49,868 nucleotides of DNA from Octopus sinensis (lineage: Eukaryota). How positions within the stretch are numbered: the stretch's first letter is position 1; each line of letters starts with the position of its first letter. The notes beneath the pieces are model-generated. The model worked only from the letters and a program-made list of their open reading frames with translations. It had not been told where the DNA came from and searched no databases. This document shows positions 1,410 to 49,868 of the stretch, in pieces. The stretch lies in contig NW_021834329.1 in assembly GCF_006345805.1 (NCBI RefSeq), positions 1 to 49,868 on the forward strand, written 5' to 3'. A program made the position numbers and the translations under genes.

Positions 1410-1640
1410 TAGATACCTTGGGTATGAGTAAGTATTTTACTTATATCTCACGTATTTATCGCTGAAGAGGGGAAAATTCTTAGAAATTAACCCCGAAATT
1501 GGGACCATACGGTAATAACGGATTTTTTAGAAATTTCCTACCGTTTTGTTTTAGGTTTGTTTCGAGCGCATAAATTTAATGGTTATTGACAATTTTGTCT
1601 TTTTTAGGCATATTTGGCATTAGAATTTTTCTTTTGCCCT
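1410..1640 (+). mobile_element. Penelope-like terminal repeat fragment with hammerhead-like motif (1456-1515)
   Basis: ttatcg CTGAAGA gggg...cccc GAAA ttgggacc ATA cggtaa: stems I and II pair, stem III imperfect; embedded in (TA)n. Confidence 0.5.
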
Positions 1641-9604: not shown

Positions 9605-10298
9605 GTTAGTTAGTTAGTTAGTTAATTTGGCTCAAAAGCAAATAGCAAGGCCATGTAGGGGGACATGGAGTTAAGTACAAGGTGGTGTTCATGTAAAGAG
9701 TTCAGGCCACTTGAGGTCCAGGGAGGCTTTGAACAAAGCGGTCGTCGGCATCTTCACCATCTCATCTGGCAGCTTGTTCCACGGACCCGCAACCCGGACG
9801 GAGAAAGCTCCACTCCTTCGATTGAGATGAAATCGTCGCAGGTAGAGCTTTTCGGAATGACCCTGCAGCCGACGCTCCGGAGCAGGAGTGAAGAACAGCT
9901 CTTTCGAGAGGTTACACTTCCCGCTTATGATGTTGTGGGCGAGAATGAGATCACCACGGCGGCGGCGTTTTTCAAGAGAATAAAGGTCGAGCGTCCTCAG
10001 CCTTTCTTCGTAGGACAAATTTTTGAGACCATGAACCAGGCGGGTAGCCAGCCTCTGGACTCTTTCGAGGTGCTGTATGTCTTTGAGGAGATAAGGAGAA
10101 GAGGCTTGAATCCCATACTCCAATATGGGTCTCACCAGCGTGACATAGAGTGGCAGGAATATGGCTGCTGTGAGCATTCCGAATGACCGTCGAATCAAAA
10201 ACAGAATTCCGCGCGCTTTGTTGGCATCATGGACGCACTGGGCCGAAGGCGAAAAGGAGGAATCCACCAAGATACCCAGGTCCTTTACCTGATCGGTC

Positions 10299-10301
<3 letters not shown>
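9605..10301 (-). mobile_element. 5'-truncated CR1-clade LINE: ORF2 C-terminus, 3' UTR and (TAAC)n tail
   Basis: KDLGILVD...LVRPILEYG...KDIQHLERVQRLATRLV...LSYEERLRTLDLYSLEKRRRRGDLI...WNKLP...FKASLD are hallmark CR1 ORF2 post-RT motifs. Stop at 9689-9691, TAAC repeats at 9605-9624, inserted in (TA)n. Confidence 0.95.
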
Positions 10302-10341
<40 letters not shown>

Positions 10342-10343
<2 letters not shown>

Positions 10344-10970
10344 GGATTAAGCACATAAATGCGAAACAAGATGGTGAAAATAGTATTCGAAGACCAGAGA
10401 TAGAGTAATATTCTTTATTAAACAGAAGTAAAAATATTACAAAAACTGTTACTCAGAGTTTAAACAGTTTTCTAAGACAGTTTTGTTTAGACAGTTTTTT
10501 CAATAATTATTCAGACTGTTGCTCTAGTAATGAGGCTAAAACACGCAGATTGAAGCTGTTTGGCACAGATTGACATTACACTCTGTTTTAACGTTTTAGG
10601 TCACTTCCGCTATTTACAAGAAGCGACCTAGAAGAACCAAGCGTTTTGGAGGAGAAGCGATTTTTCGCATGTGTGATGAGCTGTGGTGCCAAAAATATAA
10701 CCAAAGAACGAAGATGTACTCAATTTATATATTTTTAAGGATAGAATCTTACAGAATATTATGATGGTCTACTGGTTTCGCGTTTCGCTTGAGAAAGAGA
10801 GAGAATCGAGATTTCTACATCTTCCAGTGAGTTCTTTATCGTTTTCTATTATGGTATTTTAACGGAGACATTTTGATACTCTGACGGAGGAACGGAAATT
10901 ATTAAGTCAAAACACGCCTTACCTGAACGAGGAATATTCGTCAAAGACAGGTAAGTAAAAATTTCTTTCT
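10342..10970. mobile_element. Probable Penelope-like repeat fragments
   Basis: Abuts (TA)n; minus-strand GAAACCAGTA and CTGGAAGATG half-hammerhead-like motifs near 10770-10830; family assignment is tentative. Confidence 0.3.
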
Positions 10971-12624: not shown

Positions 12625-13853
12625 TGAGCGATGTTTCTCTGTCCGTTACGTTTTTATGTTCGTTAACTCCTCCCAGACCGTTGGGAAATTTTAAGGGTCG
12701 GATCTTTTCCTTTTGAACGGCAGACAATCTCTAGTTAACTAAACACTTTAAAACTTCGTATACTGGTAGAATGTGTCAAAATAAAACATCTTTTTCTCTT
12801 GGCTTTCTTGAGAAAATTGTAATTTGTTTATTTAACGTAGTTTAATTTTTCGAATTTTAACCAATCCTATGCTCTCTTTTGAGCTAAAATCATTTGCTGC
12901 GTCTAAAACTGAGACAACATCCTGTAACTAACCCTAAACCTCCCCCCTAACCCTAAATTTTATTTTTTCTTAATTGTTAAATCAATTTAATTGTTACGCG
13001 TGTAAAAAAAACTAAAGCAATGGAATTAAATTAATTTAACGATTAAGACAAAAATTTAGGGTTAGTGTTAGGGGGAGGTTTAGGGTTAGTTACAGGATGT
13101 TGTCTCAGTTTTAGACGCAGTAAATGATTTTAGTTGAATGGAGGTAATTAATTGGTTAATATTGCCGAAATGCTCGGATTTTCAGACGAAATATCTTACA
13201 AACTATACAATTTTCTCAATAAAGCCAAGAGAAAATGATGTTTTATAAACCCATTCTACCAGTATACGAAGTTTAAAAGTGTTTAGTTAACCACAGAATG
13301 TCTTTTTACCTCAACAGACGTCATTGATTGGTTGAAATTGCAGAAATTGAAGGAAAAAAAACAACAAATATCTTACAAACTATAGAATTTTCTCAATAAA
13401 GCCAAGAAAAAATGATGTTTTATAAACACATTCTACCAGTATACGAAGTTTAAAAGTGTTTAGTTAACTAGAAATTGTGTTGACATCTGCCGTTCAAAAG
13501 GAAAAGATCCTAAGGGTTACCTAATTTGGGCCCCACAGCCCCCTATTTTTACTGCATGTTAAACCAAATGCATGGTATTGGCGACCAAATCAGAACAATT
13601 GACTAAATCGAAACAATAATTTCATACCATGAACTCTCAGGGAGTATTGTAAAGAGGTTCAATTTCCGAAGGGATCTTAAATGGGGTCCCACCGATCCCG
13701 CCCTAATTTTACTGCACTTACCTCGCTCCTTCGCTTACTGATTAAGCTATGATCAGCATCAGTGCTTAACACATTTGGAGAAATAAGTTTGGGATTAAAT
13801 TACACAAGAGTAGAGAGCCTGAATGCCGCCCCGAAGGACAGCTTCGAGGCTAG
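12625..13853 (+). mobile_element. Possible non-autonomous Helentron/Helitron-like element hosting the Merlin-like MITE
   Basis: 5' part CTGTCCGTTACG...AACTCCTCCCAGACCGTT; 3' end has a small hairpin ccgaag..cttcg followed by CTAGT. Confidence 0.35.
12700..13510. mobile_element. Merlin-like MITE copy 1 (811 bp)
   Basis: TIR GGATCTTTTCCTTTTGAACGGCAG ... CTGCCGTTCAAAAGGAAAAGATCC; 8-bp TSD TAAGGGTC/TAAGGGTT; nearly palindromic throughout; internal TAACCC/GGGTTA repeats. Confidence 0.85.
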
Positions 13854-16563: not shown

Positions 16564-17191
16564 GGATCTTTTCCTTTTGAACGGCACATGTCAACACAAT
16601 TTCTAGGTAACTAAACACTTTTAAACTTCGTATACTGGTAGAATGTGTTTATAAAACATCTTTTTCTCTTGGTTTTATTGAGAAAATTCTATAGTTTGTA
16701 AGATATTTCGTCTGAAAATCCGAGCATTTCGGCAATTTTAACCAATCAATTACCTCCATTCAACTAAAATCATTTGCTGCGTCTAAAACTGAGACAACAT
16801 CCTGTAACTAACCCTAAACCTAACCCTAACCCTAACTTTTTTTCTTAATTGTTAAATTAATTTAATTCCATTGCTTTAGTTTTTTACACGCGTAACAATT
16901 AAATTGATTTAACAATTAAGAAAAAAAATTAGGGTTAGGGTTAGGGGGGAGGTTTAGGGTTAGTTACAGGATGTTGTCTCAGTTTTAGATGCAGTAAATA
17001 ATTTTAGCTCAAAAGAGAGCATAGGATTAGTTAAAATTCGAAAAATTAAACTACGTTAAACAAACAGATTACAATTTTCTCAAGAAAACCAGGAGAAAAA
17101 AATGTTTTATTTTGACACATTCTACCAGTATACGAAGTTTTAAAGTGTTTAGTTAACTAGAAATTGTCTGCCGTTCAAAAGGAAAAGATCC
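16564..17191. mobile_element. Merlin-like MITE copy 2 (628 bp), opposite orientation to copy 1
   Basis: Same GGATCTTTTCCTTTTGAACGGCA TIRs; perfect 8-bp TSD ATTATTTT (16556-16563 / 17192-17199); internal (CCCTAA)n and (TTAGGG)n. Confidence 0.9.
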
Positions 17192-36264: not shown

Positions 36265-36380
36265 TCACTGTAGGCGTGGCCAGTATTGTGACGTCATGGA
36301 AGTCATGTGATGCGTGCTCATATCTTGTGGACCTCCACCCGGCACCTGTATTGGTACCGATACTCCTGGTGAGATAAGAC
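36265..36380 (-). CDS. Pax6: Pax6 last coding exon (C-terminus of the PST transactivation domain)
   Basis: Minus strand: pyrimidine tract ...tttttttctctctctcAG|GT CTT ATC TCA CCA GGA GTA TCG GTA CCA ATA CAG GTG CCG GGT... = (G)[37 protein letters not shown] with TGA at 36267-36265. Matches the diagnostic Pax6 C-terminus (human [15 protein letters not shown]...SQYWPRLQ). This frame is not in the ORF track. Confidence 0.97.
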
Positions 36381-36751
36381 CTGAGAGAGAGAAAAAAAAA
36401 CGAGAGTTAGTGAGAGTGTCTCAGTGAATGCTTGTAATGTGTGGAGTGTGCGACAGACAGACAGACAGACAGACAGACAAAAAGTGGATGAAGAAAGAGA
36501 GATGGTGGGGTGAAAATAAGTAAAAGACACAGAGGAAGGGTGAGAGAGAAGAATGAAGATTGCGAGTGTATATGAGAGGATGTGTTGAAGTGACGTAGGC
36601 GGGTGAGTGTGATCAATAATCTCGTATTCACATTCATTCATATGTATAGAATAATTCTTAAAGGAGAATACTGTTGACAGTAACCTCGAATTTTCGGCTC
36701 GTTCATCCGTTAAGGACTGTCAATAATATTCTTTTAGATCAGATCAAAGAT

Positions 36752-36789
<38 letters not shown>

Positions 36790-36825
36790 GATATACATAC
36801 AAACATATATATATATATATATATA

Positions 36826-36945
36826 TCTTTACTCTTTTACTTGTTTCAGTCATTTGACTGCGGCCACGCTGGAGCACCGCCTTTAGTCGAGCAAATCGAC
36901 CCCGGAACTTATTCTTGTAAGCCCAGTACTTATTCTATCGGTCTC
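36826..36945 (-). mobile_element. SINE family A 3' fragment (Pax6 last intron)
   Basis: CTTTTACTTGTTTCAGTCATTTGACTGCGGCC...CTATCGGTCTCT. Confidence 0.88.
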
Positions 36946-37030
36946 TCATCCTGATGAGAAAGAGGCATAATATACTCCTTATTTCTTCGCAATTTGGGAA
37001 TATGCAGCCTTCGAAACATATGTCGAAAAT
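36946..37030 (+). ncRNA. Hammerhead motif with extended stem II (Penelope-like fragment to ~37210)
   Basis: CTGATGA at 36951, gaaagaggc...gccttc stem II, GAAAC ATAT GTC (predicted cleavage after 37024), then AATAAA; stem I is weak. Confidence 0.55.
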
Positions 37031-37839
37031 AAAGGAATTTTGTTAATTCGTCGTTCAACTCCATTCTTTCATATATTTATATTTAAAAAAAAAAACATAC
37101 AAATTTCTACACGAAAGCACGTAACTTCAAACGTGTCTTCTCTGATGTGAATTTGCTACCCAGGTATCGGTTAACCGAATTATCCATAACAAGATAATTC
37201 ATTCAACTACTTATATATATATATATATATATATATTCTTGTAGCTAACCATTCATGTTTACATACATATGCGCATATATGTATGCCACCATGCATCGAT
37301 ATATATTATACGCATACATACATATGAATATAGACATTTTGTGCACATAACGCCACACACCCATCCATACGTATACATACATATTTCGTACATGCATACA
37401 CATACTATCAGCCATTTGTGCTCGCATATAAGCAAAAGTACATGGATGTATTCGCACACATGCATTCATCTAAACACATACACATATGTATGTATATATA
37501 TGTGTATGTAAGGAATATGTGTGCATGTATATATATATATGTCTGTATATGTGTGCATGTATGTATGTATGTTTATGCGTGTATGTATGTATGTATGTAT
37601 GTGTGTGTATGTATGTATGCACGTATGTATATTTGTATATATATGTTTATATATATGTACGTATATATATATATGTATGTATATATATATATATACGTAT
37701 GTACATGTATGTATATATGTATATATATATATGTGTATAATATTGATGCAGACATAAGATACACGTATACAAATCTGTATACATACACACACTTCCAAAT
37801 ACACATTACGTTTGCGTACACACAGAAAAACACGCATAT

Positions 37840-37888
<49 letters not shown>

Positions 37889-37889
<1 letters not shown>

Positions 37890-38080
37890 TATAATAAAGG
37901 GTTAATTGCAACAAATTGCTCAAAACCACATACCGAAAATATTAGAAATGGCAGCCAAATTCTGTTTGTTTGTGGAGACTTTTTTATTAGTAGGAGAAAT
38001 GATGATCTATTTGGCTGCCATTTCTAATATTTTCGGTATGTGGTTTTGAGCAACTTGTTGCAATTAACCCTGTATTATAA
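37889..38080. repeat. 72-bp inverted repeat (Penelope-like end) in Pax6 last intron
   Basis: Arms 37889-37960 and 38009-38080 are complementary with about two mismatches. Confidence 0.92.
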
Positions 38081-38209
38081 TTAATATAATCCTTACCAAA
38101 TATGGTCTTTTCCATGCCGATAAAACTACTATGTGAAATTTATTAATTTTATTCAATTAATTATATTTCACCCTTTTTGTATATATATATATATACTTTT
38201 TTACATTTT

Positions 38210-38615
38210 TTTTACTTGTTTCAGTCATTTGACTGCGGCCATGCTGGAGCACCGCCTTTTAATCGAGCAACTCGACTCCGGGACTTATTCTTTGTAAGCC
38301 CAGTACTTATTCTATCGGTCTCTTTTGCAGAACCGCTAAGTGACGGGGACATAAACACACCAGCATCGGTTGTCAAGCAATGCTAGGGGGACAAACACAA
38401 ACATACACGCACACATATATATACACACATATATATATATATATATACATATATACGACGGGCTTCTTTCAGTTTCCATCTGCCAAATCCACTCACAAGG
38501 CATTGGTCGGCCCGAGGCTATAGCAGAAGACACTTGCCCAAGTGCCACGCAGTGGGACTGAACCCGGAACCATGTGGTTGGTAAACAAGCTACTTACCAC
38601 ACAGCCACTCCTGCG

Positions 38616-38617
<2 letters not shown>
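38210..38617 (-). mobile_element. SINE family A, full length (Pax6 last intron)
   Basis: Family A reverse complement. Confidence 0.93.
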
Positions 38618-38669
<52 letters not shown>

Positions 38670-38682
38670 TATATATAGAAGG

Positions 38683-38731
38683 AGCTTCTACAGGACTAGA
38701 ATGTTTCATTCAGAGAAATCTTCAGGAAGCT
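38683..38731 (-). ncRNA. Type I hammerhead ribozyme motif, Pax6 sense strand
   Basis: agcttc CTGAAGA t-ttc-tct-gaa-t GAAAC a-ttctagtcc-t GTA gaagct; 6-bp stem I; lies within inverted repeat 38672-38774. Confidence 0.7.
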
Positions 38732-38845
38732 CTTGAATGAAACAGTTCTAGTCCTGTAGAGCTCCTTCTATATAATAAATTAATTTACTCTGCTATGTAT
38801 TGAGTACCTTATTTACTGTGGTTAACCCCGAATCAACCCGGGACC

Positions 38846-38891
<46 letters not shown>

Positions 38892-38896
38892 TATAT

Positions 38897-38928
<32 letters not shown>

Positions 38929-39054
38929 TAGAGAAGTACATACATACACATCGATGCATTCACCCTGTGCAAAGGCATACGTACACACATAACTATATTC
39001 GATGCATCTACACGAAATACAGAAATCCACCGCCAGTCGTTGAGTGCCAATTAC

Positions 39055-39183
39055 CTGTCGAAGCTCCGTTGGTGGAATGCGAGGTCATGTGCGATTGCAT
39101 CCCTGCGGCTGGATTGCAAGACGACCGCGAGTAGTTACTTAACGTGAGGGGGTCGTAACTTCTGGCCGTTCCTGATACATAAT
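39055..39183 (-). CDS. Pax6: Pax6 penultimate coding exon (PST domain), 129 nt, phase 1-1
   Basis: Acceptor tatatcttgcAG|AT, donor ACAG|GTAATT. Encodes (D)YVSGTARSYDPLTLSNYSRSSCNPAAGMQSHMTSHSTNGAST(G), similar to vertebrate Pax6 GRSYD...MQTHM...TTSTG. Splices in frame onto 36380. Confidence 0.95.
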
Positions 39184-39324
39184 CTGCAAGATATAAATAA
39201 GGAAATTCCAACGGTAAACAGCTTGGTGGGCGAAGAGCACAAAAAGGTTTTTAAAAAATCTGTCTTGAGGACTTCATGCAAAGTAGATATACAGCAAATA
39301 TATTTATATATATATAAAATTAGA

Positions 39325-40030
39325 AATATGAGCATAATGAAATACTCATATCTACATGGCTGAAACAGCTGTAAGATGTAGTTTATATTTATATTTATTT
39401 ATACATATTATATATTATGTGTATGTACCCATTCTTGTATGGGTGTACCTTCTGATATCCATATTTAGATTGTACTTTATAATCTCTGAAGAGGCCTTGG
39501 GATATATTTGTATGTGTCTCATTTATAACCACATATTAACTTATCACACCTGGCTAATATGAGCATAATGAGACACTTATATCTACATGGCTGAAACAGC
39601 TGTAAGATGTAGTTTATATTTATATTTATTTATATTTATTTATACATATTATATAATATGTGTATGTACCCATACTTGTATGGGTGTACCTTCTTGAGAT
39701 TGTACTTTAAATCTCTGAGAAGGCTTGGGAATATTTGTATGGTGTTGTGTACACATATAACCACTATTATTATCACACCTGGCTAATATGAGCATAATGA
39801 GATACTTATATCTACATGGCTGAAACAGCTGTAAGATGTAGTTTATATTTATATTTATATTTATTTATACTATTGTACTTATTGTATCATATTACTCATT
39901 GATGTGCACTGTTTTGTTCTGTACTATTATGTTTGACCTTGATGTTCATATGTAACTGGCTAATAAATTATATGAATGGGTATTATGTGGTAGTTGATTA
40001 TTGATTTAGGTGTATTTCTCCATTTTCTTA
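39325..40030 (+). mobile_element. Tandem ~230-nt hammerhead-containing repeats (Penelope pLTR or non-LTR retrozyme-like)
   Basis: TGAGCATAATGA...TCTACATGGCTGAAACAGCTGTAAGATGTAG occurs three times (GTA triplets ending 39373, 39604, 39833); followed by a T-rich tail with AATAAA. Confidence 0.75.
39482..39608 (+). ncRNA. Type I hammerhead ribozyme motif with ~100-nt stem II
   Basis: atct CTGAAGA ggcc...ggct GAAAC AGCT GTA agat; inner pairings gtgtctcatt/aatgagacac and catatta/taatatg. Confidence 0.72.
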
Positions 40031-40406
40031 TTTTGTATATATATATATATATATAATTTATAAGTAAGGACAAGGAAAAATATTCAAATGCCAAAATATG
40101 CTGAAAATAGACATGACGCCAATAACCATGTAATTTATCACTACAAGCACGCATTTCTAAAAAATCCCGTTATTACCATATCGGACCCGATTTCAGAGTT
40201 AGTTCATTAGAACCTTCCCTTTCGAGTATGTTGGCCATTGATTGATTTTTTTCGAAAAATTTTAACCTACATTAGATGTTAATGATATATATATATATAT
40301 ATATATTTAATCAATATAGGGTGCCAAAAAATTTTGTAGAATTTTTTTGCCACCAGCGGCCTAGTGGGAAAAAATTAAATAGTCATAGACCATTTATAAG
40401 TTCAAC

Positions 40407-40694
40407 ATCACAATCAAGGAACGGCCATAATAGGCCATTCACCCACTAGAAATAACAGCCAAAGCTTCAACCGCAAAATAACATTAATTTCGCAAACCAG
40501 GAGAAAATTAAAAAAACATTTACCCTGTAATTTCTTATACGATGCACCGTTTCATCTATTTTAATGGTAAACTAACCTGATTAAATTAAATCAAGCCAAT
40601 CTTCCATAGGCCTCTAGATTCGTCAGTAAGAAATAGCCAGATCGGAACAGATATTTCTAGTGGGTGAATGGCCTATTATGGCCGTTCCTTGATT

Positions 40695-40699
<5 letters not shown>
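40407..40699. repeat. Perfect 48-bp inverted repeat enclosing the hammerhead (Penelope-like element ~40310-40700)
   Basis: ATCACAATCAAGGAACGGCC...CTAGAAATA at 40407-40454 and its reverse complement at 40652-40699. Confidence 0.92.
40530..40634 (-). ncRNA. Type I hammerhead ribozyme motif with long stem II, Pax6 sense strand
   Basis: atttctta CTGACGA atcta...aagattggcttgatt-taattt-aatcaggttagttt...tagat GAAAC ggtgcatc GTA taagaaat; perfect 8-bp stem I and intact core. Confidence 0.82.
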
Positions 40700-40761
<62 letters not shown>

Positions 40762-40873
40762 AACATACACCATAGGTGTGGTAGAGAGCCCTAATCTTCT
40801 AGAAACTTAAAAGGCGCAATTTACAGCGCAAAATTTCTATACAGCCAAAAGTCCGGCTGTGACTAATTCAACC

Positions 40874-41085
40874 TTTATTCAGGCATAGTGTATCTAGGAC
40901 TACATTATCTAATGTATAGTATAGTAGTAGGTATTTGTGGCTATAATTATTGTTGTTTAACCCCAGGTAAGTCCTGATCCAGGCAGACCTATGATCAAAA
41001 ATGTTCCAGCTGTGACCATCACATCTTTTATTCAGGCATAGTGTATCTAGGACTACTATATCTAATGTATAGTATAGTAGTTAGT
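40874..41085. repeat. ~55-bp direct duplication
   Basis: TTTATTCAGGCATAGTGTATCTAGGACTAC...TCTAATGTATAGTATAGTAG near 40875 and 41027. Confidence 0.85.
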
Positions 41086-41557
41086 ATTAGTTGATGACAT
41101 CAGGTCGCCCAAAATGGTGAATGTATTTTAATCGATACACTAATACAGATATACCTAAAGTCCAGATAGAATACTTCGAAGTCACTTTCAACATTCTTCT
41201 TGAAAAATTATATATACATGTGTGTGGTGTGTGAATATTTGTTAGTGTGTGTTTGTTTGTGTATATTTGTGCGTGTATGTGTATGCCTGTTTGTATGTGT
41301 ATGAATGCGTATCCAACCATGTGTGTGTGTGTGTGTGTGTGTCTGCATGTATGTATGTTTGTGACGGCATATATACACATTTGTGCACCTGTGTATATCT
41401 GGTGTTTATGCATCTATACTTTTATGCATGTTTGCGTGCGTGCATCTGTCTTTGTGCATGCACCCTTCTTTATGTATGTATGTATGTATGCATGTATGTG
41501 TGTGTGTATGTATGTATGTATGTATGTATGTATGTATGTATGTATGTATGTGTATAT

Positions 41558-41720
41558 AGGCGCAGGAGTGGCTGTGTGGTAAGTAGCTTGCTAACCAGCC
41601 ACATGGTTCCGGGTTCAGTCCCACTGCGTGGCATCTTGGGCAAGTGTCTTCTACTATAGCCCCGGGCCGACCAATGCCTTGTGAGTGGATTTGGTAGATG
41701 AAAACTGAAAGAAGCCTGTC

Positions 41721-41764
<44 letters not shown>

Positions 41765-41980
41765 TTGTGTGTCTGTGTTTGTCCCCCTAGCATTGCTTGA
41801 CAACCGATGCTGGTGTGCTTACGTCCCCGTCACTTAATGGTTCGGCAAAAAGGGACCGATAGAATAAGTACTGGGCTTACAAAGAATAAGTCCCGGGGTC
41901 GATTTGCTCGACTAAAGGCGGTGCTCCAGCATGGCCGCAGTCAAATGACTGAAACAAGTAAAAGAGAAAAAGAGAGAAAG
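41558..41980 (+). mobile_element. SINE family A, full length (Pax6 intron)
   Basis: GGCGCAGGAG head to AAAAGAGAAAAAGAG tail. Confidence 0.93.
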
Positions 41981-42457
41981 AGATATGTATGCATGTATGT
42001 TGTGTGTATGTATGTATGTATGTGTGTATGTATGTACGCGTGTAATGTATGTATGTGTGTATGGATGTGTATATGTATGCATGTATGTGTGTGTATGTAT
42101 GTATGTATGCATGTATGTATGCATGTGTGTATGTATGTGTGTATGTATGTATATTTGTGTGTCACGTGCCTGTGTCTGTTCTATATTGCAACTATTTCTT
42201 TCTCAAAAACTCACAGATCCTAGAAATACCAAAGAACCACACGCACTCATGATTCGCACTTTCATATCAAAGACAGCATATATTTAATTTTCGGTACTTT
42301 AAGCTTTAAATGGTTCTATTAGACACGGATTGAAATAATTAACGCACACACAAATATAACGGGAAATATACATAAGTAAATATATAGATGGTAATATATA
42401 TATATATATATACAGAAGCAAATGTATCGATGTTAAATATATAATATATATATATAA

Positions 42458-42742
42458 TCCCGGACCGGGCTGCGTGCTGTGTTCTTGAGCAAGACACTTT
42501 ATTTCACGTTGCTCCAGTTCACTCAGCTGTAGAAATGAGTTGCGACGTCACAGGTGCCAAGCTGTATCGGCCCCTTTGTCTTTCCCTTGGATAACACTGG
42601 TGGCGTGGAGAGGGGAGGCTGGTATGCATGGGCGACTGCTGGCCTTCCATAAAACAACCTTGCCCAGACTTGTGCCTCAGAGGGTAACTCTCTAGGTGCA
42701 AACCCATGGTCACTCATGACCGAAGGGGGTCTTTACCCTTTT
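42458..42742 (+). mobile_element. 5'-truncated CORE-type SINE family D
   Basis: TGTGTTCTTGAGCAAGACACTTTATTTCACGTTGCTCCAGTTCACTCAGCTGTAGAAATG (MIR/CORE-like), 3' tail different from family E; inserted in (TA)n. Confidence 0.75.
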
Positions 42743-42779
42743 ATATATATATATATATATATAAGTAACTGTGTAGATG

Positions 42780-43435
42780 TTAGAAAATATATAAATATAT
42801 ATATATGTTAGAATATATAGGGAAATAAATATACAGATATTGAAATATATATAAATATATAGATGTTACAATGTATATATAAGTATGTAGAAATATATAA
42901 AGATATATATATATATATATATACACATTCACACGTGTTAAAATGTATATATAAATATGTTGAAATACATATATATAAATATATAGATGATAAATGTGTA
43001 TATAAATATGTTGAAATCTATATAAATAAAAAAATATATATATATATATTATCATATATATATATATGTTGAAATACATATATATCAAAAATTATAGATG
43101 ATAAAATGTATATATAAATATGTTGAAATCTATATAAATTATATATATATATATTAAAATGTATATATAAATATGTTGAAATCTATATAAATATATATAT
43201 ATATTAAAATGTATATATAAATATGTTGAAATATATATATATAAATATATAGATGTTAAAATGTATATATAAATATGTTGAAATACATATATATAAATAT
43301 ATAGATGATGAAATGTATATATAAATATGTTGAAATGTATATATATAATATATATATATATATATGTACACACACACACATATATACACACACATGTTAA
43401 AATGTATATATAAATATATAAAGATGTTAAAATAT
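42780..43435. repeat. AT-rich minisatellite
   Basis: Recurrent AAATGTATATATAAATATGTTGAAAT unit. Confidence 0.85.
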
Positions 43436-43747
43436 ATCAATGCAAGTGTAGATATGTATTTGTACATATGCATTCATACTTTCACACACGCTTATGAATA
43501 TGTGTATCTGTGTGTGTGTGTGCGTGTGTGTGTGTGTGTGTACGTGTGTTAGTTTGCGTATGTAGGTTTGTGTATTTATATGTATTCGTGTTTATGTACG
43601 TTTCCTTGTAGCACACATTTAAGCGCTGCGTTTAAATGGAAGGCAAAAAGGAAAAAACACTGTCGCCAATCGATCACGTGATTAAATTTCTCCTACATCA
43701 CTTACATACGCTCACATCAATATATTAATAGACATACACAAACGCCC

Positions 43748-43778
<31 letters not shown>

Positions 43779-44484
43779 CACACACACACCTACACATAGA
43801 CAACTATCTACTCACGTACGGGCGTATACGCACATAATTTCGCTCATATATCTACATATATCTACATATATATATATATACATACTTGCACTCAAAAGTA
43901 CACACTCCTCTCTGTCTCTCTCTCTCTCTCTCTCTCTTATATACTCCAAAACACGGTTAATATAAAGCCCTCCCCACTACCGTTCAAACTACACAGCAGA
44001 CATCAAATCACTTAAAAAGCGTTTAAATATATTTTACAAAGAATGACAAAAATAAATAATTGTTTAAAATGGATTTTAAACAATCGAAATTATCAAATAA
44101 ATTGTAAATATATATTTATTTATATATATATATATATATATTTTGCAGTATATTTATTTAAAAATAGAAATATATTGTGATGCGGTGGTTGGATTACAGA
44201 AGGATTAACTGATGTTGTTTAAACAGTATTCTATTTGAGAGAATACAGATAGGGGAATGAGGTGGTTTATTTGGTTATTTTCGTGTGTTTAAGAGTGTTA
44301 TCTTTTATTTGTAGTCGGGAGTTGTAGTGCAACGGTGGTGTTGGAAAAGTATGAGATGGAAGTGGATAGATCGTGAGGGAAATATACAGGAAAAAAAGAG
44401 GGATATATAGCGAAGAGGGGCTCACCGAGCCTGCAATATCTATATTGTAGTAGTAGTAGTATTGGTATAATTATAATGAACTGT

Positions 44485-44850
44485 TTCAAATTTTGGCAGA
44501 AGGCCAGCAATTCTAGGATTAGTAGGTTAGTCGATTATATCGAAACCAGTATTCTGCTGGTACGTAATTTTATAGACTCCGAAAGAGTGAAACGCAAAGG
44601 TGATCTCGGCAGACTATGAACTGAGAACGTAAAACCGGAAGAAACGACTGCTAAGCTTTACCAGCGTGTAAACGATTCAGCAAATTTACCGCCTAAATAG
44701 TAATAATAATAATAATAATCCTTTTTACTATAAGCGCAAGGCCTGAAATGTGGGGAGAGAGCCGATAGTCGATTACAACGACCTCAGTACACAACTGGTA
44801 CTTTTTATCGACCCCCAAAATATGAATGGCAAAGTCAACCGCGGCGGAAT
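44485..44850 (-). mobile_element. Two old SINE family B copies
   Basis: Diverged AGTCGATTA...CTGGTAC...GCAAAG..GA.CTCGGC cores separated by (TAA)n. Confidence 0.7.
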
Positions 44851-45119
44851 AAATAATAATAATGATAATAGTAATCGTTTATTATTTTGAGGAGGGTTTT
44901 GGTGGAATTAGATATATATGAGCTTTCCACCCTTTGTCCAGGATGGCCAGGATGCGAAAGCAAAGTTTCTCTTGAAAAATTACCGTTCTCAGGGCTGAAG
45001 ATTTATGCTAAAATGTGAGGCCGATTTAGGATGATAATTCTGATTCCTTTAGAATATTGGCAATGTTTAAGAGCTAGCCACTGTTTAAGAGCTTTTTGCT
45101 AAATCTTTTAGGTGGCTAT

Positions 45120-45392
45120 GCGGTAAGTTTAATGTTAGTCTACTATCATAATTCCATTGATATATACGATATTTTAAAGGAAAGGTAAAGTTAGTGTTAG
45201 TCTTCTATTATAATTTCATTGACATCTTGGATGTTTTCTAGGAATATTAAATCTACCCCAGTATATCACTGCTACTTTATTTTCTCAACCCCACAATGAT
45301 GTAAGGTAAAGTTAGTGTTCATCTATTATAATTCCATTGACATCTTGGATGTTTTATAGGAATATTAAATCTACCCCAGTATATCACTGGTA
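45120..45392. repeat. ~120-bp tandem duplication
   Basis: AAGGTAAAGTTAGTGTT...CATTGACATCTTGGATGTTTT.TAGGAATATTAAATCTACCCCAGTATATCACTG twice, plus a partial copy. Confidence 0.85.
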
Positions 45393-46098
45393 TTTTGAGT
45401 ACTCTCTGTTTTGGTATCGTAGAATTATCGTTATCTCGAAGGTGAATCTACTTTTATGCAAATGTTTATATAAGTATGCCTATATACATACAAATATGAA
45501 TATATAATTGCAAATATATATATATGTATTAGCGTAAAACACGTGTATATATTTATACATACACAAAGCTATATATATATACTTACGTATAAATTTACAC
45601 ACACACATAAATATACACGCGTGTGTATTATATATAAATACACATATACAAATATATCTAATATATATATATATTATACAAATATATATGTATATATATA
45701 TTATATATACAACTATATATGTATGTATATATATATATGATATATACAAATATATATATATGTATATATATATATATTATATTATATATACAAATATATA
45801 TGTATGTATATATATACATAATATACATGTATATGCATCTATATGCATTTATATATAATTACATATTCAGCATATATATAAATATACTTATAAGAAAATA
45901 ATAATAATGATAATAAAAATAACATTAATAATATAAAATATATAAAAAAAATAAAATTTAAAATTAAACGATAATACTAATATTAATTAACTAAATAAAT
46001 AAATGATAAATAAATAAATAAATAAATATGAAATACTCAAAATAAGTAAAATAATAATCAATAATAACAATAGAACCACGTGACTGAGAAAATATGAC

Positions 46099-46215
46099 CT
46101 TGCCAAGCACGTGAGGTTTCCAGCATATTTCCAGTATCCTTAGTATCGTACTCAAGGTTCGGTTCCATGTCTGACTTTATTCTGCTAAGCCCTTCTTTGT
46201 ACCATTCCAACATAT
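46099..46215 (-). CDS. Pax6: Candidate Pax6 alternative cassette exon in the PST domain, 117 nt, phase 1-1
   Basis: Acceptor ctatttctccatcttcacactgatttcttcAG|AT, weak donor CAAG|GTCATA. Open in the Pax6 frame: (x)MLEWYKEGLSRIKSDMEPNLEYDTKDTGNMLETSRAWQ(D). Unique-sequence island between AT-rich tracts; same phase as the downstream exon. Confidence 0.7.
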
Positions 46216-46434
46216 CTGAAGAAATCAGTGTGAAGATGGAGAAATAGACAGGTGCGAGGGTGTGATATATTTTGGAAGGGGAGGCGGTAGGGATAATAAT
46301 AATAATAATGATAATAATGTTGTTTGTACTGAAATGTATAGAAACGTTGTCGTTAGAGGCGGCATTTACAGAGATGACGTGTTAGAGGAGGAGGTATTTA
46401 CAGAGATGATGGTTTTAAGTTGCTGTTTATTTAT

Positions 46435-46656
46435 TTATTTACTACCCACAAGGAGCTAAACACAGAGGGGACAAACAAGGACAGACAAACGGATTAAGTC
46501 GATTATATCGACCCCAGTGCGTAACTGGTACTTAATTTATAGAACCCGAAAGGATGACAGGCAAAGTCGACCTCGGCGGAATCTGAACTCAGAACGTATC
46601 GGCAGACGAAATACGGCTACGCATCTCGCCCGGCGTGCTAACGTTTCTGCCAGCTC
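46435..46656 (-). mobile_element. SINE family B
   Basis: Family B reverse complement. Confidence 0.9.
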
Positions 46657-47487
46657 TTATTGTAATCTTTTAGAGATGCTGATGTTATTTTGGGCTGTAT
46701 TTTTTGATAGTAACAATTTTATAAGTGATGGTGTTGTTTGTGGCAGTTACATTGGTGATAAGGATGTCGTTGTTGTATGTACAGGTATTTATAGAGATGA
46801 TGGTTGTGGGCGTGATATTTGTAAAGGTCTATAAAGAAATGGTGTTGCTGGACTTGTTCTTACTGGTGGTGGTAAATATAGAGCTGATAGTGTTGGTGTT
46901 GCATGTTTGCTGTTTAGCTCTGATTTTAGTTTGTTTGTAGGGTTTTCTGTTGAATGTCTTTTGTTTTAAGTTGTTGCTATTTTGATTATGCTCAGATCCA
47001 TATCGATCGAGCAGACCTTATTATCAAGGGTATTTTAACCAAGACTACCTCACTTTTTTTCTATTTTCAAGTAACACAGAAACAAATAACACAACTGGTT
47101 ATTTTCGCAGATGATGGGTTGTAATCTGAACAAAATTTAACTGTTTGCTGAGTAATTAGTTATTTTACTAGTACGACTGGTTTTAATAAGTTAAGATTCA
47201 TTTTGGATAGTGGCTTCTATAGAGATGATGGATATATTCGCTTTGATATTGTCTTTCAGTAGTTGCTGGATCTCATTTTTCATGTTGGGGGAAATGGTAA
47301 AGGATGTCTTGGTATTGAGGATTTATAATACAGTTGTTAGTGGTGTTGATCAGGGTTGGACTTTATTCTCCTAAGAACTTTTACCATTTTAACATATCCG
47401 ACGAAATCAATGTAAAGACAGAAAAATGAGTGTATTCAGGAGTAGAGATGTTTAGGAATGCACGCTGATATTGCATAATCGTTGACT

Positions 47488-47612
47488 TAGCAACGGGGAC
47501 GTAAATACACCAACATCGGTTGTCAAACGATGGTGGGTGACAAGCACAGACACACAAATACATACATACATACTACATGCATACATACATATATACGACG
47601 TGCTTCTTTCAG
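47488..47612 (-). mobile_element. Diverged SINE A internal fragment
   Basis: ACGGGGACGTAAATACACCAACATCGGTTGTCAA...ACGACGTGCTTCTTTCAGT. Confidence 0.75.
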
Positions 47613-47657
<45 letters not shown>

Positions 47658-47789
47658 ATATATATATGTATGTGTATTCAGAGATGATGGCGTAGAAGCA
47701 CACATGCATTACACAGCCATATGCAAATACAGGTACATGCACACATATCCATGAGAGAGTGAGTGTGGGAGATAGAAGACTGATAAAAA

Positions 47790-47820
47790 GGCAGATAGAT
47801 AGATAGATTAATAGACAGAG

Positions 47821-47886
<66 letters not shown>

Positions 47887-48036
47887 GCAAATAGTTAGAT
47901 AGATATATTGATAGAAAGATAGATAGACAGAGAGATAGATAGATAGATAGACAGGTAGGCATATGTATAGGTAGGGATAGATTGATGGATGGATGGATGG
48001 ATGGATAGCTGGATAGGCAGATAGATAGATGGATAG

Positions 48037-48090
<54 letters not shown>

Positions 48091-48272
48091 GCAAATAGTT
48101 AGATAGATATATTGATAGAAAGATAGATAGATTGATAGACAGAGAGATAGATAGATAGATAGACAGGTAGGCATATGTATAGGTAGGGATAGATTGATGG
48201 ATGGATGGATGGATAGCTGGATAGGCAGATAGATAGATGGATAGAGATAGATAGATAGGTAAATAGATAGAT
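47790..48272. repeat. (GATA)n/(GGAT)n microsatellite with higher-order duplication
   Basis: GATA runs with repeated GGCAAATAGTTAGAT and GACAGGTAGGCATATGTATAGG interruptions. Confidence 0.95.
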
Positions 48273-48823
48273 ATGCAAACAGATAGAGTGAGAGAGGTGA
48301 GTGAGTAAGTGGAAGATTGCTAAGTGGAAAGACACAGATAACTAGAAAAATGGGTTTTACACGTTGCTGTTAATTAAAAAGAGCAATTTGTTGGCAACTC
48401 GTGTTTTGACGGCTGAGAGCAACACCGGCAACCACTAAGAGAGAGTTCGGATGAGCAAAACAGTTCTTCTGGCCGCCATATATACATACGCAGAAGTGAA
48501 TATAAATTCACACATACACTTGCGTCAGAAATTAATTAGCACTTCTCAAATTTCTACATTAAATAGGTTAAATCAATTAACCTATGAGCTGTTCAAAACG
48601 TCTTACGCGATGAGAAAACTTAGTATGGTGTGATTTCGGTCCTTGCGAGGCGCTACCTATATCTATTAAACAAAGGAAGATTTGTCTGCATCCGCACTCC
48701 AAGTTGTTGTTGCACTGCTATGTCAACTTCATAAGGCTGTAGACTCTCAAACTGCTCTGCAAACAAAGTTACGTCATCGTTCTGCGCAACAGTGAACTCG
48801 CAACAAAGCAATAGTTCGAGATA

Positions 48824-48842
48824 TGGCCACTAGGTGACAGCA
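48824..48842 (+). promoter_or_regulatory. CTCF-like motif in unique intronic sequence
   Basis: TGGCCACTAGGTGACAGCA versus CTCF core CCAC/GYAGG/ATGGCR. Confidence 0.35.
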
Positions 48843-49162
48843 CATACCTTGAGTGAAGAGCAAATCAAGGGTGCTAATTAATTTCTGACGGTAGTGTATA
48901 TACACCTATGATCATACATATTATTTATGCACACAGGTAGATATAAATATAAGTGAGTGTATACGTTTGCAATAGTTTTTTCTAAATTATTAGTTCGACT
49001 TAAGTGGAATATTTTCTTATACATATAATATACGTACATATCGATATACGCTCGCATATAGACACACGCATATACACACACATGTATAGAGAAGGAGCGA
49101 GCGTGACTAGATAGGTAGATAGATCGATAAGTACATATACACGTGCTTATAAACATGTATGC

Positions 49163-49404
49163 TTACTCTTTTACTCTTTTACTCTTTTACTTGTTTCAGT
49201 CATTTGACTGCGGCCATGCTGGAGCACCGCCTTTAGAGTGGTGAAAGAGTACAGCAGGGATCACCACCTCCTGTCGGAGCCTCGTGGAGCTTTTAGGTGT
49301 TTTTTTCGCTCAATAAACACACACAACGCCCGGTCTGGGAATCGAAACCGCGATCCTCCGACCGCAAGTCCGCTGCCCTAACCACTAGGCCATTGCGCCT
49401 CCAC
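49163..49404 (-). mobile_element. SINE A 3' end (49163-49233) joined to SINE C 5' part (49236-49404)
   Basis: (TACTCTTT)n tail of family A directly adjacent to the reverse complement of the family C head. Confidence 0.85.
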
Positions 49405-49520
49405 TCCATATATATATATATATATATAGTATATATAATAATAAATATTAGGGAATATATCCAAATTTACAGGGAAAAAAAATCAGATTTAGGATTAAAT
49501 CCAATTTTATAGTAAAATAT

Positions 49521-49828
49521 TATAAAATATTATTTGAGACAAAACCACTATTTTGCAAAACAAACAAGGAAAGACTTAATCAATACATAAAATAATAAAT
49601 AGTCAAAAAAACGCCACTACAATCGTTTCTTGTCATTGATCGACAATCTTCAGGTGGACTTCCAATAATTCAGTTACAAATTATGAAGTCATAATTTGTA
49701 ACTGAATTATGGAAGTCCACCTGAAACGATTGTAGTGGCGGTTTTTTTTTTTGATATTTATTAAATTTTATGTATTGATTAAGTCTTTCCTTGTTTTGTT
49801 TTGCAAAATAGTGGTTTTGTCTCAAATA

Positions 49829-49838
<10 letters not shown>
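49521..49838. repeat. Long fold-back inverted repeat (Penelope-like ends) centred on 49687-49688
   Basis: Arms 49521-49686 and 49689-49838, 2-nt spacer; the right arm lacks the hammerhead stem II. Confidence 0.93.
49614..49657 (-). ncRNA. Minimal type I hammerhead ribozyme motif, Pax6 sense strand
   Basis: ccac CTGAAGA ttgtc-gatcaat-gacaa GAAAC gatt GTA gtgg; all core nucleotides intact. Confidence 0.8.

Positions 49839-49868
<30 letters not shown>

Follow-up and report, generated by a model that had tools for sequence, protein, structure and literature searches.

Does the Pax6 pre-mRNA of an octopus carry ribozymes that cut it during transcription, or are the hammerhead motifs in its introns leftovers of mobile elements? 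The question is raised by a contig of Octopus sinensis (NW_021834329.1, assembly GCF_006345805.1), analysed here at its full length of 49,868 nucleotides, the window and the contig being identical (C10800 of the 2.72-Gb genome assembly G000), which carries the 3' part of Pax6 on its minus strand. A first-pass annotation had reported three core-intact hammerheads on the sense strand of three successive Pax6 introns, and had proposed that they are latent self-cleavage sites competing with splicing of the PST exons or, equally, neutral relics of transposable elements. The high copy number of the families involved, their private mutations in Pax6 and their insertion into (TA)n tracts favour the relics. 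The three motifs are terminal hammerheads of unrelated, high-copy, non-coding repeat families; they are likely neutral relics mobilised by Penelope-like elements (PLEs), and they are predicted not to cut the Pax6 pre-mRNA usefully.

Both strands of the window were scanned with a structure descriptor for type I hammerheads. Exactly three motifs were found on the minus strand, with cores starting at 38725, 40626 and 49653; these cores and the predicted cleavage sites fall at the same positions as those annotated earlier.

38682..38732, minus strand: HH1, type I hammerhead motif; core CUGAAGA from 38725, H17 at 38689, predicted cleavage at 38689/38688
40530..40634, minus strand: HH2, type I hammerhead motif; core CUGACGA from 40626, H17 at 40538, predicted cleavage at 40538/40537
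49614..49657, minus strand: HH3, minimal type I hammerhead motif; core CUGAAGA from 49653, H17 at 49618, predicted cleavage at 49618/49617

The CUGANGA and GAAA boxes and the UH cleavage site are present in all three motifs, as is the triplet GUA, and each motif, when folded in isolation, forms three helices around the core, with helix I open. Stems I/II/III comprise 7/3/3 bp in HH1, 8/5/4 bp in HH2 and 4/6/2 bp in HH3. Stem III is palindromic in HH2 and HH3 and non-palindromic in HH1, stem II of HH1 stands on a U-U mismatch, and one arm of stem II in HH2 is 66 nt long. The G10.1-C11.1 pair is absent, being U-U in HH1, A-U in HH2 and U-A in HH3, as in their families; natural exceptions to this closing pair have been reported (PMC7229834). 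Compared to its family, HH1 has single-base deletions at ~38702 (stem III) and ~38713 (loop II), and HH3 has a 1-nt insertion at ~49635; such single-base indels in the Pax6 copies could be assembly errors. The stem II arm of HH2 has a private 2-nt deletion at ~40561 that is absent from all 61 aligned family copies. Targeted Rfam scans returned no hammerhead family at E <= 10 for HH1, HH2 or HH3, and no hammerhead model was among the 150 listed of 338 Rfam matches in the whole window. The descriptor had no match in 100 dinucleotide shuffles of 36381-49868, and 0-1 match per 400 kb of shuffled background; these controls rule out chance motifs.

Each motif lies in an element bordered by (TA)n tracts:

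38662..38848, no strand assigned: HH1 element, short palindromic insertion between (TA)n; hairpin ~38672-38774, extension of ~70 nt at one end only
40307..40697, minus strand: HH2 element, 5'-truncated solo piece of a 490-bp tandem (retrozyme-like) unit, between (TA)n
49428..49834, no strand assigned: HH3 element, palindromic insertion between (TA)n tracts

The sizes of the families were estimated from exact matches of 25-29-nt family motifs in the genome, for which reversed-pattern controls gave 0. There are 5,474 such matches for the HH1 family, 1,280 for HH2 and 2,938 for HH3, evenly distributed across both strands. Except for one 23-nt AT-rich match to an antisense element, the three elements have no mutual BLAST similarity. 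Sequence comparison supports independent insertions of three unrelated repeat families, in agreement with the earlier suggestion based on unrelated stems. The numbers of column differences from the family majority are 7/353 nt (HH2), 6/251 (HH3) and 2/61 (HH1), in comparison sets that partly favour close copies; both HH1 differences fall within the ribozyme. At ~2% divergence of the Pax6 copies, one would by default expect a 13-nt core to be intact.

The families have different architectures. Elsewhere in the genome, the HH2 family is arranged in 490-bp arrays that are 98-99% identical, each unit holding a single hammerhead (as many as 6.1 copies, at 99%); no open reading frame (ORF) of at least 250 aa was found in 5 array stretches (L176-L180), and none of at least 200 aa in 20 loci (L258-L277). 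A related subfamily (L120) has compensatory changes in stem I and stem III, which suggests that the fold of the HH2 family is under selection. A 48-nt stretch is present in inverted form in the Pax6 copy of HH2 (arms at 40407-40454 and 40652-40699), and this inverted repeat does not cover the hammerhead. Long copies of the HH1 and HH3 families (e.g., L222-L227 and L278-L285) are several kb in length, non-coding and microsatellite-rich, with a terminal hammerhead and inverted arms, and the palindrome centres vary from copy to copy. The HH3 family has a hammerhead on both strands in 14 of the 19 best-matching loci, which were picked by likeness to a palindromic query and two of which overlap. 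In the Pax6 copy, only the sense motif is left, as its upstream antisense arm has lost 21 nt at 49723/49722; the opposite-strand hammerhead is gone, and the pairing with HH3 is kept. Among the first-listed family copies, an antisense copy lies within 200 nt upstream in 7/30 cases for HH3, 6/20 for HH1 and 1/20 for HH2.

These arms matter for the predicted behaviour of the motifs in the Pax6 transcript. In the native context, the computed cost of forcing the hammerhead fold is +46 kcal/mol for HH1, +39 for HH3 and ~+3 for HH2. For HH1 and HH3, the cost was 38-46 kcal/mol at every nascent 3' length tried (+5 to +200 nt), whereas that of HH2 was +2.2 to +5.9 kcal/mol, similar to its family copies. 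The competing hairpins have a minimum free energy of -64.2 kcal/mol (z -12.3) for HH1 and -83.5 kcal/mol (z -16.5) for HH3. Folding thus predicts that HH1 and HH3 are sequestered by an antisense arm that is transcribed before the ribozyme, and that HH2 is the only one of the three able to fold in its native context. The pairable stems I-III noted earlier therefore hold for all three motifs in isolation, whereas HH1 and HH3 are predicted to be locked in hairpins in the native context.

The first-pass annotation had also stated that Penelope type I hammerheads carry a short palindromic stem III and often cleave poorly as monomers; this agrees with Cervera and de la Pena 2014 (PMC4209133), where one minimal hammerhead of a metazoan PLE, when tested, did not cleave as a monomer and had a low level of cleavage as a dimer. 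In HH1, one deletion shortens stem III and weakens the self-dimer from -12.8 to -3.0 kcal/mol. Stem III of HH2 is strongly self-complementary (-17.5 kcal/mol). There is no dimer partner in cis: heteroduplexes between HH1, HH2 and HH3 reach only -2.7 to -4.0 kcal/mol, and a heterodimer was rejected, the pairing being too weak.

The placement of the motifs follows from the Pax6 exons, which were checked against cephalopod proteins, with exon limits taken from the flanking sequence:

36265..36380, minus strand: last coding exon, ending in YWPRLQ followed by a stop; 97% to the cephalopod protein P0008
39055..39183, minus strand: 129-nt PST exon; 100% to an Octopus protein, 95% to pygmy squid Pax-6
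46099..46215, minus strand: 117-nt in-frame cassette exon with the weak donor GTCATA; orthologue of the 120-nt exon 6 of squid

The cassette exon matches Octopus isoforms P0001 and P0007 at 100% and squid variant P0002 at 63%, and is skipped in P0008; in squid, the Pax6 PST cassette is exon 6, of 120 nt (PMC3942700). The gene model and the sense-strand placement proposed earlier are borne out by these matches, the intronic position of HH3 being inferred because this contig lacks the exon that precedes the cassette. A separate contig (C8955, plus strand) carries the paired-domain exon and the Pax6 exon after it, and neither of these two Pax6 contigs includes the one directly before the cassette. 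The last coding exon (36380-36265) is single-copy in the genome, which rules out a redundant haplotig as the source of the locus. A 2,271-nt contig of sequencing run X12, which we guess to be RNA, aligns to the 129-nt exon only and is consistent with normal splicing on both sides of that exon. Otherwise, the contigs aligned to the locus are dominated by other copies of the repeats.

The cassette exon is common to octopus and squid; therefore, its alternative splicing likely long predates these young insertions. Moreover, both the inclusion and the skipping products are spliced across HH2 and HH3; therefore, cleavage at these sites would mainly lower the output rather than choose the isoform. 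The proposal of three latent cleavage sites that compete with splicing of the PST exons is not supported: sequestration is predicted for two of the motifs, a partner for dimerisation is missing in cis, sense motifs do not prevail over antisense ones, and both isoforms span HH2 and HH3.

Read-through of the donor of the 129-nt exon (39054-39008, minus strand) gives an open frame, NWHSTTGGGFLYFV, followed by a stop, which resembles the C-terminus of the predicted Octopus isoform X2 (P0001). Judged from the sequence, this may be a conserved Pax6 form that arises by intron retention or termination within the intron.

How do these motifs compare to known systems? The type I topology and the short palindromic helix III of HH2 and HH3 are shared with the minimal and variant hammerheads of metazoan PLEs, as are the thousands of mostly solo copies, the several sequence families and the close opposite-strand pairs (PMC4209133). 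There are also differences: the G10.1-C11.1 pair is highly conserved in PLE hammerheads and present in none of our three motifs (PMC4209133), HH2 has its 66-nt stem II arm, and no parent reverse transcriptase (RT)/GIY-YIG ORF was found in line with any of the three octopus families. Like the non-LTR retrozymes (PMC7229834; bioRxiv 10.64898/2026.07.22.740005), the HH2 family has non-coding units that follow each other head to tail in arrays and carry one type I hammerhead each. It is, in terms of tandem organisation and lack of coding capacity, a family of this kind with a slightly long unit, 490 bp compared to a reported monomer of 150-450 bp (PMC7229834). In contrast to retrozymes, the Pax6 copy of HH2 is a truncated solo, and the HH1 and HH3 families are multi-kb, microsatellite-rich and non-coding rather than short tandems. 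In having U-U at the base of helix II, the HH1 family is similar to the axolotl HHR_Amex2, and ~43% of Xenopus retrozyme copies overlap introns; therefore, an intronic position is ordinary (both in PMC7229834; bioRxiv 10.64898/2026.07.22.740005).

Intronic ribozymes with a host function differ from the octopus motifs in other respects. The mammalian CPEB3 ribozyme likewise lies in sense orientation in an intron of a neural/developmental gene; however, it is conserved across species and active, with a half-life of 2-3 min (PMC10274809), whereas the octopus motifs are young, belong to large families and are, in two cases, predicted to be locked. The ultraconserved intronic hammerheads of amniotes (named in PMC6765202) are also in sense orientation and conserved across species, whereas those of the octopus are members of young repeats. 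A host-adopted ribozyme should be single-copy or selected; here, each family has > 1,000 near-identical members, and mutations fall inside the ribozyme. None of the three motifs qualifies as an autonomous PLE or as a host-adopted intronic ribozyme.

The insertions have the traits of Penelope-type integration, i.e., variable 5' truncation with an inverted copy, a one-ended extension and a microsatellite target. PLE insertions are described as 5'-truncated and inverted, with a bias toward (TA)n (Craig et al. 2021, PMC8557442), and the octopus copies share the 5' truncation, the inverted 5'-truncated copy, the one-ended extension and the (TA)n targets. They differ in that the octopus copies examined are non-autonomous and in that the extension is ~70-80 nt, compared to 30-40 (PMC8557442). 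RT and GIY-YIG ORFs are present in the genome: among 150 scored of 5,029 candidates there are 147 GIY-YIG matches, and two ORFs with both RT and GIY-YIG were confirmed. Comparison of the GIY-YIG loci and these two ORFs with the family loci found no link to an autonomous Penelope. PLE fragments occur near some family copies (L002, L055, L060/L061, L178, L257), and HH3-tail and fifth-family (HH5) sequence lies beside a PLE (L183). None of these neighbours is continuous with a hammerhead element or recurrent in other copies of the PLE concerned. The label "Penelope-derived" would thus rest on architecture and on the literature (bioRxiv 10.64898/2026.07.22.740005), with no parent shown; Penelope families are expanded in coleoids (PMC8967140). 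The element at L183 (C1:207473001-207481000) is of Penelope type, with a 479-aa ORF upstream of, and overlapping, a 781-aa RT and GIY-YIG ORF, and has many near-identical copies; a descriptor scan of it found no hammerhead.

The first-pass annotation had suggested a comparison of hammerhead density and strand bias with other loci, and it had overlooked two plus-strand motifs, one in the HH4 element (39486-39604) and one at 1462-1509. Three further features of the window enter this comparison:

39325..39868, plus strand: HH4 element, antisense partial tandem of 229 bp x 2.4, with a descriptor-complete hammerhead at 39486-39604, in the same intron as HH2
1462-1509, plus strand: hammerhead motif of the fifth family, outside Pax6, with relatives in L039 and L183
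40153..40219, minus strand: fifth-family relic related to the 1462-1509 motif, with the CUGANGA half lost

The HH4 family is small and decayed, with 60 exact motif matches and one of 10 other copies passing the descriptor, and HH4 is the weakest of the motif set. The second Pax6 contig has an antisense motif as well, in a palindromic insertion of the HH1 family (C8955:5175, minus strand); it is in the intron that follows the paired-domain exon and is predicted to be locked, too. Of the motifs in the assembled Pax6 introns, 3 are thus sense and 2 antisense (binomial p = 1.0), i.e., there is no strand bias. The local density is above background, and this excess is real. The background is 15 motifs per Mb (interval 7-28; random samples with 8 + 1 matches, a few of them probably chance), which extrapolates, from 9 matches in 600 kb, to ~40,000 hammerhead motifs genome-wide. 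About 12 stretches as dense as that of Pax6 (0.6-135) are expected in the genome, and the Pax6 stretch was chosen after the fact. The density of (TA)n in Pax6 introns is ~2.7-3x the background (1.8-2.1 compared to 0.67 tracts per kb). Near family loci, there are 10 matches to other families in 307 kb (98/127 loci, overlaps dropped), 2 of which are HH1-family variants, leaving 8, or ~26 per Mb. Control regions showed 1 sense and 1 antisense motif near homeoboxes and 1 weak sense motif in other Pax introns, too few for a test of strand bias.

Several observations weigh against neutral relics that leave the transcript uncut. Four motifs in 13.5 kb (36381-49868), compared to 9 in 600 kb of random chromosomal sequence, have a Poisson probability of 6e-5, and after scaling for (TA)n the probability is still 8e-4 for the 13.5-kb introns and 0.025 for 5 motifs in 40 kb of assembled Pax6 intron; thus, (TA)n richness explains the excess only in part, and the residual excess is unexplained. 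No enrichment was found in the controls, with 2 motifs in 185 kb near homeoboxes on unplaced scaffolds and 1 weak motif in 81 kb of other Pax introns. The core of HH2 is complete and its stems are of 8/5/4 bp, many invertebrate retrozyme hammerheads cleave efficiently (PMC7229834), and the folding energies omit tertiary contacts, proteins and A-to-I editing. At the loci examined, including the multi-kb copies, no copy of the HH1, HH2 or HH3 family runs on into an RT/GIY-YIG ORF. We read the residual excess as an insertion-prone locus rather than as selection, because it includes antisense and broken copies, such as the core-less relic at ~40153-40219.

The relic explanation builds on what was observed: the motifs belong to repeat families whose copies were counted, (TA)n lies on either side of them, 5' truncation is variable and comes with an inverted copy, the HH2 family forms tandem arrays, and the Pax6 copies have private mutations. 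In the mechanism that we propose, the ribozyme would serve the life cycle of the element itself, freeing element RNA from precursor transcripts, probably as a dimer via the palindromic stem III, and mobilisation would occur in trans, by Penelope RT/GIY-YIG proteins. In Pax6, HH1 and HH3 would be trapped by the antisense arm that is made first, HH2 would be a lone monomer without a partner, and the introns would be spliced out normally.

The alternatives differ in how much activity they grant to the locus. HH2, acting as a monomer, might cut a small share of the Pax6 transcripts while they are being made, an unselected and tolerated effect with slightly lowered output. This is unlikely, even though its fold is within +2.2 to +5.9 kcal/mol of the minimum-energy structure, as in family copies, the compensatory stem I and III changes in L120 suggest a selected family fold, and an axolotl retrozyme hammerhead reaches 22% monomer cleavage in an hour (PMC7229834): the kinetic window is short, with the next acceptor only 1,354 nt away, the stem II arm carries its private 2-nt deletion, and there is no dimer partner in cis. 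Far more doubtful is that the hammerheads were kept or co-opted to regulate PST-exon splicing or Pax6 mRNA output kinetically, in the manner of CPEB3. The local excess is not fully explained, the three best-formed motifs in the introns of this contig are all sense, and intronic ribozymes have a precedent (PMC10274809); however, two of the three motifs are predicted to be locked in hairpins, mutations sit inside the ribozymes, the strand bias vanishes once the antisense motifs are counted, the insertions are young compared to the old cassette exon, and inclusion and skipping isoforms span HH2 and HH3 alike.

We consider it equally improbable that the relevant feature is the long intronic double-stranded hairpin, which would likely be a substrate of ADAR or a modifier of splicing, and not the chemistry of the ribozyme. 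Coleoids have heavy A-to-I editing, both hairpins are very stable (-64 and -84 kcal/mol, z -12 and -16), and that of HH1 starts ~280 nt downstream of the donor of the 129-nt exon; however, palindromes are common in these families (7/30 and 6/20 first-listed copies), and the hairpins show no pairing with exons. A more specific scenario, to which we give very little weight, is that HH2 cuts nascent Pax6 RNA 1.35 kb before the 129-nt exon and so sets the output or the timing of PST isoforms, in which case it would be a recently recruited, transposon-derived, CPEB3-like control marked by the local excess of hammerheads.

Other observations in the genome and the window do not bear on these explanations. 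Three loci on unplaced scaffolds (L024, L025 and L029 on C9061, C12762 and C8591) encode divergent Pax6-like paired domains, the first two being 72% and 61% to protein P0004; by their sequences, they are possibly extra Pax6-like paralogues. Long inverted repeats with TTAGGG-like arms lie at 12902-13115 and 16804-16967, and the microRNA-model matches there are spurious. An open stretch at 9692-10414 (minus strand) resembles, by eye, what we take to be the C-terminal part of a LINE reverse transcriptase.

The motifs are real members of the known PLE/retrozyme kind of type I hammerhead and likely neutral relics of retroelements. The finding is, for now, an ordinary one, as hammerheads of retroelements are abundant at ~15 per Mb. 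The literature search, which covered few subscription papers, returned nothing on octopus or Pax6 hammerheads or on these families. The octopus families, with their multi-kb non-coding elements and frequent self-locking palindromes, are well suited to testing cleanly if sense hammerheads are tolerated in introns only when locked. If HH2 were active and consequential, a mobile ribozyme would have been recruited into the control of Pax6, the master gene of the cephalopod eye.

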